From Escherichia phage VB-EcoM-WM: a stretch of 64,000 nucleotides of DNA. Location: the sequence record PQ014731.1, one strand, 5' to 3'. The translations under genes were made by a program, and so were the position numbers. The notes below the pieces were generated by a model that did not search any database, had not been told where the DNA came from, and saw nothing but the letters and a program-made list of their open reading frames with translations. Below are positions 44,666 through 45,088 of this stretch, one piece after another. Positions within the stretch are counted from its first letter, which is position 1; the number at the start of each line of letters is the position of its first letter.

Positions 44666-44690
44666 CTCCGCGTAGCTCAGCTTGGTAGAG
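44666..44690 (+). pseudogene. 5' fragment of a tRNA gene (acceptor + D-arm) interrupted by HNH ORF
   Basis: CTCCGCG-TA-GCTCAGCTTGGTAGAG is a canonical tRNA 5' end; acceptor pairs with 3' fragment at 45078-45084. Confidence 0.5.
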
Positions 44691-44700
44691 ATAATCAAAG

Positions 44701-45042
44701 ATGCACAAATGCAGTCGTTGTGGGGAAGAAGATCCATGTAAATTTTATGGTCATAAAAAGACTATATGCGGGAAATGTCACAATGAGTACACCATGAATC
44801 TTGGGAGGCAGAAACGACAGTATGCTGTAGACAAGTTAGGCGGTAAATGTATCAATTGTGGGTTCGATAAATGGATTGTTTCTTTAGATATTCACCATTT
44901 AGACCCTAAAATTAAAGACTCTAAATTTGCTCAAATGAGAGGTTGGAGTCTGCAAAGAATTGATAATGAAATTAAAAACTGTGTATTACTTTGTAGAAAT
45001 TGTCATGCTGCCGTACATGCAGGACTTTTAGAACTCCCATAA
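44701..45042 (+). CDS. HNH endonuclease inserted within a tRNA gene
   Basis: 113 aa with paired CxxC and HHLD..K...N....LC..CH (HNH-like). Confidence 0.55.
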   Translation: MHKCSRCGEEDPCKFYGHKKTICGKCHNEYTMNLGRQKRQYAVDKLGGKCINCGFDKWIVSLDIHHLDPKIKDSKFAQMRGWSLQRIDNEIKNCVLLCRNCHAAVHAGLLELP

Positions 45043-45055
45043 CTTTGGGATCAGG

Positions 45056-45088
45056 AGGTCGAGTGTTCGAATCACTCCGTGGAGACCA
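45056..45088 (+). pseudogene. 3' fragment of the interrupted tRNA (variable loop, T-arm, acceptor, CCA)
   Basis: AGGTC-GAGTGTTCGAATCACTC-CGTGGAG-A-CCA; no intact anticodon arm found adjacent. Confidence 0.5.

Follow-up and report, generated by a model that had tools for sequence, protein, structure and literature searches.

The window, a stretch of 64,000 nucleotides from Escherichia phage VB-EcoM-WM (PQ014731.1), contains a tRNA-Pro(UGG) gene that is broken in two by an open reading frame (ORF) for a predicted HNH endonuclease and that lies downstream of an array of further tRNA genes (Table 1). The region between 44300 and 45500 matches Vequintavirus records at 97–99%, and the phage is an rV5-like myovirus. 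From 44666, the 5′ remnant of the gene reads CTCCGCG-TA-GCTC-AGCTTGGTA-GAG, i.e., the acceptor 5′ strand, U8 and A9, and the D stem-loop up to G24, and it is 100% identical to the start of the intact tRNA-Pro gene in five other phages (L001, L012, L013, L014, and L015). The preliminary description of this DNA had placed the acceptor, TA, and D arm at 44666–44690 and a matching 3′ end at 45056–45088. Both were found where it had put them, the latter comprising AGGTC, the T arm (GAGTG-TTCGAAT-CACTC), the acceptor 3′ strand CGTGGAG, A73, and CCA, but the 3′ part truly begins 12 nt earlier, at 45044. The additional nucleotides are the anticodon loop TTTGGGA (anticodon UGG; 45044–45050) and the 3′ strand of the anticodon stem, TCAGG (45051–45055). 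Of the anticodon arm, which the description had not found intact, the loop and the 3′ strand of the stem are complete and the 5′ strand is missing.

Table 1. Features of the interrupted tRNA-Pro(UGG) locus, with positions in the window.
Feature	Coordinates	Strand	Basis or remark
Upstream tRNA array: Arg, Tyr, Ser, odd 99-nt tRNA, Thr, Met	43931..44654	+	ARAGORN, Rfam
tRNA-Pro(UGG) 5′ remnant	44666..44690	+	tRNA positions 1–24; equals the first 25 nt of the intact gene
Insert, putatively mobile, 353 nt	44691..45043	+	Alignment of interrupted with intact allele
Leader ATAATCAAAG, 10 nt, before the start codon	44691..44700	+	Sequence
Predicted HNH endonuclease ORF, 113 codons and TAA	44701..45042	+	Pfam HNH, PHROG 2255, alignment, model
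Single C, final base of the insert	45043..45043	+	Between stop codon and anticodon loop; alignment
tRNA-Pro(UGG) 3′ remnant	45044..45088	+	tRNA positions 32–76, CCA included; equals the intact allele

The insert consists of the leader, the ORF, which fills nearly all of it, as had been described, and a single C, and it replaces 7 nt of the intact allele, CGCCTGA (tRNA positions 25–31), which correspond to C25, G26, and the 5′ strand of the anticodon stem. Position 31 of the intact Vequintavirus allele is natively A, whereas the insert ends with C. Homologous leaders read AGAAATC (in L016, a locus of another phage family described below) and ATAATAAATCTGT (in L062, a further locus with a split tRNA gene). 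Neither ARAGORN nor Rfam called a tRNA at the interrupted locus, and the gene, with positions 25–31 absent, does not form a complete cloverleaf with a 5-bp anticodon stem. Within the upstream array, a tRNA-like gene of 99 nt (44400–44498) is unusual in its own right: ARAGORN assigned it a four-base anticodon (atcc), and Rfam scored it as tRNA with 37.5 bits, with ∼26 nt inserted into the variable region and UUUUUAA as its anticodon loop. In relatives it is annotated as "tRNA-OTHER" or "tRNA-Lys, isotype inconsistent", and it is conserved in phage YP-6.

The ORF product scored 23.8 bits against Pfam PF01844 (HNH), above the cut-off of 21.4, and matched PHROG 2255 ("HNH endonuclease") with an E value of 5e-27. 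It combines an N-terminal CxxC...CxxC zinc ribbon with a CxxC-HH-N-CxxCH HNH core, and C50, C53, H65, H66, C98, C101, H102, and H106 are invariant in an alignment of 48 homologous sequences. Both the profile score and the presence of the catalytic and zinc residues place the protein in the HNH superfamily. An AlphaFold model (pLDDT 96.3) contains strand-strand-helix elements; its top structural matches were HNH nucleases (Cap5, Gme HNH nickase, the HNH domain of Cas9, and T4 endonuclease VII), albeit weak ones (E 0.07–2). A sequence search of the PDB with the family profile returned nothing significant, the best match being McrA (E 0.13).

Intact and interrupted alleles of tRNA-Pro(UGG)

Apart from the window, 13 of about 150 GenBank records of closely related phages carry the ORF, with a protein identity of at least 99% in these 13 records. 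In about 140 close relatives, the locus is occupied by an annotated tRNA-Pro(UGG) gene that is intact (77 nt, e.g., in phita32, LL12, and ECP32). In most related phages, only 71% of the query was covered, in two pieces, and tRNA-Pro is annotated there. Across the site, the intact allele reads ...GGTAGAG-CGCCTGA-TTTGGGA..., and the junctions of the insert were identical in all seven carriers compared (the window and six others). The locus is thus polymorphic for presence or absence at one fixed site, as expected of a freestanding homing endonuclease gene. Carrier records label the ORF either "hypothetical protein" or "HNH endonuclease"; none of those examined annotates a tRNA-Pro remnant. An exact search of IMG/VR with the 5′ junction gave no matches, so the split form is rare.

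These alleles bear on three readings of the fragments named in the preliminary description. That their complementarity is coincidental is contradicted by the fact that both are 100% identical to the ends of the intact, annotated 77-nt tRNA-Pro(UGG) gene of relatives. Nor was an intact tRNA found elsewhere that would make them the remnant of a duplication: the complete genome of the carrier YP-6 encodes six tRNAs, none of them tRNA-Pro. The third reading, in which a tRNA was destroyed when an endonuclease gene became inserted, is borne out by the comparison: phages that are nearly identical have either the intact or the interrupted allele, the anticodon stem has had its 5′ strand replaced, and nothing in the insert can restore the lost bases. 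Because a tRNA-Pro that is ∼80% identical to the phage gene is present in every E. coli genome, loss of the phage tRNA-Pro is tolerable.

The insert differs between carriers at 0–3 of its 353 nt, and the differences inside the ORF are all synonymous, compared with a divergence of about 5% in the adjacent flank (17 differences between the window and YP-6 across the first 334 nt downstream). Downstream of the insert, the window has the flank type of ECP32, HMD-6, and phita32, all with intact alleles, YP-6 that of SYGMH1, while the flanks of navn, A142, and 241Ecol014PP are LL12-like. Carriers hence occur on at least three flank haplotypes, each of which is also found in phages with the intact allele, i.e., the distribution of the insert is incongruent with its flanks and the insert is better conserved than they are. 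Comparison of alleles and flanks thus shows horizontal spread of the insert. A co-conversion tract was not seen around the insert among carriers; it would not be visible, as carriers and non-carriers have the same tRNA halves, bar one substitution. The latter was found in the carrier A147 (L011), where G43A in the 3′ remnant changes TCAGG to TCAGA. This sole substitution in any tRNA-Pro half is consistent with relaxed constraint on the remnant, albeit as a single case.

The same insertion site is occupied in an unrelated phage family. A contig from the assembly of a public run (L016), the relatives of which are N4-like Kaypoctavirus phages of Klebsiella with intact tRNA-Pro(UGG), encodes an HNH protein that is 85% identical to that of the window (79% nucleotide identity between the ORFs). 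The tRNA-Pro(UGG) gene interrupted there is a different one (acceptor CACTGCA/TGTGGTG), reading CACTGCA-TA-GCTC-AGTCTGGTA-GAGC-A to the left of the insert and C-TTTGGGA-GCAGA-GGGTC-TTAGG-TTCAAAT-CCTAA-TGTGGTG-A-CCA to the right. Compared with the intact Kaypoctavirus allele, only TCTG (positions 27–30) has been replaced. The right junction, stop-C-TTTGGGA, is common to L016 and the window, and in L016 the C is the native base of position 31. Synonymous divergence between the two ORFs is saturated and dN/dS is 0.04; the element is therefore old, and codon comparison demonstrates purifying selection on the protein. Together with the invariant catalytic and zinc residues, the low dN/dS argues for a protein that is active. 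Even so, the two halves of the tRNA have remained those of the local intact allele in either lineage, as expected if an old element has invaded recently, and this pattern is better explained by tRNA-Pro genes being invaded anew time and again than by a relic in decay. As a separate observation, a stretch of L016 just downstream of its tRNA array (2083–2318) scored 44 bits for the Rfam family "tmRNA_permuted", below the gathering score of 47.

Association of the HNH family with tRNA genes

Homologous ORFs were collected from phage records, IMG/VR, and metagenomes, which yielded 169 loci. A tRNA gene lies within 1.2 kb at 152 of these, and at 92 the ORF ends no more than 30 nt from, or overlaps, the 5′ end of a tRNA gene on the same strand; the adjoining tRNA is tRNA-Pro in 48 of the 92. 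The stop codon of the ORF can even be part of the tRNA itself, namely its U8-A9-G10, as in L019 and L006. Upstream of the ORF, 24 loci have an orphan 5′ fragment of a tRNA gene, an 11.5-fold excess over background density. Such fragments comprise the acceptor strand and the D arm and are broken at about positions 22–26, and because this breakpoint recurs, we infer that enzymes of the family act at the junction between the D stem and the anticodon stem of tRNA genes. The order fragment, ORF, intact tRNA of the same isotype was found in L121, L116, L115, L140, L081/L082, and L165/L166. The usual cassette would then carry its own downstream tRNA, and the window and L016 would represent a derived form in which a single broken tRNA is left. 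Further single split tRNAs are present in L062 and L066, where the acceptors pair and the middle is scrambled or degenerate; in L066 the scrambled middle made isotype assignment fail.

Relatives of L066 (L185 and L187) carry a different HNH gene. On the minus strand of L185 (1842–2374), it follows a 47-nt 5′ fragment of tRNA-Pro(GGG), which extends through the anticodon arm, and is followed by an intact, diverged tRNA-Pro(GGG), the U8-A9-G10 of which provides the stop codon of the ORF. L187, which was read to 12680, has the same 47-nt tRNA-Pro(GGG) fragment and the start of the HNH gene. The arrangement in L185 looks like an intermediate form, made up of scar, endonuclease, and replacement tRNA. 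It was also considered whether the last 10 nt of the ORF in the window (ACTCCCATAA) are the vestige of the 5′ end of such a second tRNA. The spacing fits, as HAG is followed by five codons and the stop in the window, L016, and L019, but an ungapped match of 3/10 leaves this as speculation, and the candidate was dropped. In Certrevirus, which belongs to the same subfamily, related phages have between 1 and 18 tRNA genes (PMC7344957). The paper on phage CB7 reporting these numbers has a section on homing endonucleases (PMC7344957), and tblastn gave matches to the HNH protein in Pectobacterium phage PcCB7V. Erosion driven by endonucleases may be a cause of the varying tRNA count in Certrevirus.

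The best comparison is offered by two phage systems. SegB of T4 is a freestanding homing endonuclease of the GIY-YIG type encoded in the T4 tRNA gene cluster. It cuts a related phage in the region of the tRNA genes and favors inheritance of the region in which it is itself encoded; its ORF extends into the following tRNA, the 5′ processing of which cuts just before the stop codon, and this was proposed to limit SegB expression (PMC2330249). Like the endonuclease gene in the window, segB is freestanding, lies within the tRNA array of a phage, and shares the strand of the tRNAs, and the way its ORF enters a tRNA is that of most homologues surveyed here. In contrast, SegB is not an HNH enzyme, and its gene sits between tRNA genes and leaves them intact, whereas the HNH gene in the window lies inside a tRNA gene, which it inactivates. 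The F-Tfl enzymes of T5 are freestanding HNH homing endonucleases from a tRNA gene cluster (work of 2004, as cited in PMC2330249). T5-like phages encode distant homologues (32–42% identity) of the window protein between tRNA genes, one of them with its stop codon on the U8-A9-G10 of tRNA-Ile. The T5 enzymes are set apart from the window by their description, in the part of the source at hand, as intergenic, with no split tRNA reported there. What distinguishes the present case from SegB and the F-Tfl enzymes is the position within a gene, the loss of the tRNA, the site shared across phage families, and the 5′ tRNA scars throughout the HNH family. Archaeal tRNA genes resemble the window in being interrupted outside the canonical position 37/38, by bulge-helix-bulge introns at non-canonical positions (PMC4090602), but their introns require the archaeal splicing endonuclease and complete exons, whereas the phage has a bacterial host and 7 exon nucleotides are missing. 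No account of a phage tRNA gene with an endonuclease gene within it was found in the searchable literature; the case of Vibrio phage pVa5 was dismissed as a probable ARAGORN artefact.

Intron, chimeric RNA, relic, or homing endonuclease gene

The possibility of an unusual intron had also been raised, and the architecture itself invites it, with an ORF lying between two tRNA halves whose acceptor strands pair. Group I introns are well known from tRNA genes of bacteria and plastids, for example, cyanobacterial tRNA-Leu(UAA) and tRNA-fMet; they sit in the anticodon loop, possess a ribozyme core of at least 200 nt, and restore the tRNA upon splicing, and those of phages often carry HNH genes. The insert shares with them that it intervenes within a tRNA gene, but a core is absent, some of the anticodon stem has been replaced, and restoration of the tRNA is not possible. 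Only 11 of its 353 nt are non-coding, and Rfam, scanned permissively (E up to 10) across 43700–45300, returned no intron family, RF00028 included, while the same library readily detected a true group I intron nearby (46925–47149; 92.7 bits), which served as the positive control. Instead of the U and G expected for group I introns, the 5′ flank ends with G (44690) and the insert with C (45043). Seven nucleotides of the tRNA are gone, and neither end of the insert supplies a YYTGR strand that could pair with TCAGG. With introns allowed, ARAGORN made no call at default thresholds; at the 80% threshold it returned a low-grade tRNA-Leu with a 338-nt intron, the one call in favor of an intron, which was put down to the three intact arms and rejected as artefactual. 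The same arms drove the 347 ARAGORN calls obtained from 8,200 simulated pairs of excision boundaries: the calls were scattered over ∼20 "isotypes", mostly with two- or four-base anticodons, were mutually inconsistent, and included none with a real anticodon stem. With no P3–P9 core, no U/G boundaries, and no excision and ligation found that yields a cloverleaf and restores the gene, it is barely credible that the insert is an intron, whether of group I, group II, or another kind, from which a working tRNA-Pro would be regenerated by splicing.

The intron used as the control (RF00028; E=1.7e-22) splits the large terminase gene of the window (46192–48005), exon 1 being the ORF 46192–46941 and exon 2 lying within 47268–48005. 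The terminase gene of LL12 is annotated as "intron-containing", that of phita32 and ECP32 is uninterrupted (515 aa), and that of 241Ecol014PP and navn has an ORF that ends after 143 codons and is followed, ∼200 nt downstream, by a gene for an endonuclease VII-like protein. In YP-6 (L190; 35228–37900), the gene for anaerobic ribonucleotide reductase is annotated in two pieces (nrdD_1 and nrdD_2) with a 170-aa ORF between them, which suggests another intron or endonuclease insertion in this group of phages.

A promoter-like site precedes the tRNA array (43844–43872), neither promoter-like nor terminator-like sites were found between tRNA-Met and the ORF, and no clear Shine-Dalgarno sequence is present in the 10-nt leader. 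The insert is probably co-transcribed with the upstream array, and the ORF most likely expressed at a low level from that transcript. In such a transcript the tRNA halves might pair across the ORF and form an acceptor/T-arm minihelix, resulting in a functional chimeric RNA, a tmRNA-like HNH messenger that is trimmed by RNase P and ends with CCA, by which the mRNA would be stabilized or regulated. In the minimum-free-energy fold of 44666–45088, the acceptor stem (7 bp) and the T arm are indeed preserved. CCA is still encoded, a lineage with saturated synonymous divergence (L016) has the same layout, and processing during tRNA maturation was proposed to control SegB and the F-Tfl enzymes of T5 (PMC2330249). 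However, the fold barely beats shuffled sequences (z = −1.83; 4 of 100 fold as well), and conservation of halves that are identical to fresh intact alleles requires no selection at the level of RNA. One carrier has a substitution in a remnant, and the split tRNAs of L062 and L066 are scrambled in the middle. ARAGORN detected no tmRNA, nor did Rfam in this region, and the acceptor has C3-G70, not the alanine identity pair G3-U70 of a tmRNA-like molecule. The last 25 nt of the ORF can also pair with the anticodon loop, the 3′ stem, and the variable loop (45018–45060; GACUUUU.GA..UCCCA / UGGGA.UC.GGAGGUC), which places the stop codon in the loop. This candidate 14-bp hairpin was rejected: its inner stem is broken by a synonymous C-to-A change in all other carriers, and its outer stem, at the variable loop, pairs a run of U with a run of purines, without meaningful covariation. 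A functional chimeric RNA is therefore very unlikely, and a tRNA-like clamp at the RNA level is possible but unsupported. Decidedly doubtful, too, is a dual use of the tRNA halves, by which the element would have adopted them both as universal homology arms in DNA, for homing into tRNA-Pro across unrelated families, and as an acceptor/T-arm clamp in RNA, cut by RNase P and ending with CCA, that protects the end of a tmRNA-like endonuclease messenger. It is unlikely, as well, that the insert is an inert relic of a single accidental insertion, shuffled passively, with a nuclease that is inactive or has another role, e.g., as a terminase-associated HNH protein in packaging. The large terminase gene follows 1.1 kb downstream of the ORF, packaging can be assisted by HNH proteins (Kala et al, 2014, as cited in PMC5746245), and the Vequintavirus relatives are highly mosaic. 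Yet, about 140 close relatives are viable without the ORF, so it is no packaging component, and neither the selection on the protein and its invariant residues nor the occupation of the same site in an unrelated family is expected of a relic; moreover, the family is tied to tRNA genes, not to terminases.

As read from its alleles and homologues, the insert is a mobile element targeting tRNA genes, not an intron, and probably a freestanding, intron-less HNH homing endonuclease gene, from a family at home in tRNA arrays, that became inserted into tRNA-Pro(UGG) in a subset of Vequintavirus. Against homing it can be held that general recombination in mosaic phages could spread a neutral insert without any action of the endonuclease, that the leader has no obvious ribosome-binding site, and that the split form is rare in IMG/VR. 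From the junctions and scars alone, we infer that the target is the intact tRNA-Pro gene around the junction between the D stem and the anticodon stem. Since this target is destroyed in a carrier, the carrier would be immune. In a mixed infection, the enzyme would nick or cut the intact allele of the co-infecting phage, and repair would copy the insert across, with the conserved tRNA halves and the neighboring DNA as homology arms. With positions 25–31 replaced, the tRNA-Pro gene is dead as a tRNA, its loss being covered by the tRNA-Pro of the host.

This explains a feature that several deposited phage genomes carry unannotated, and it points to a large, previously uncharacterized family of HNH proteins specialized on tRNA genes. 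Its members are mostly found at the 5′ edge of an intact tRNA; many have a 5′ scar of a truncated tRNA upstream, and in occasional cases the tRNA has been destroyed. The message for the annotation and therapeutic use of phages is modest: carriers are short of one phage tRNA, and there is no sign of a new RNA-processing pathway. If the enzymes do cut at the junction between the D stem and the anticodon stem, they would be a possible source of nucleases with long, conserved natural targets, and a likely force in the gain, loss, and exchange of tRNAs in phage arrays.
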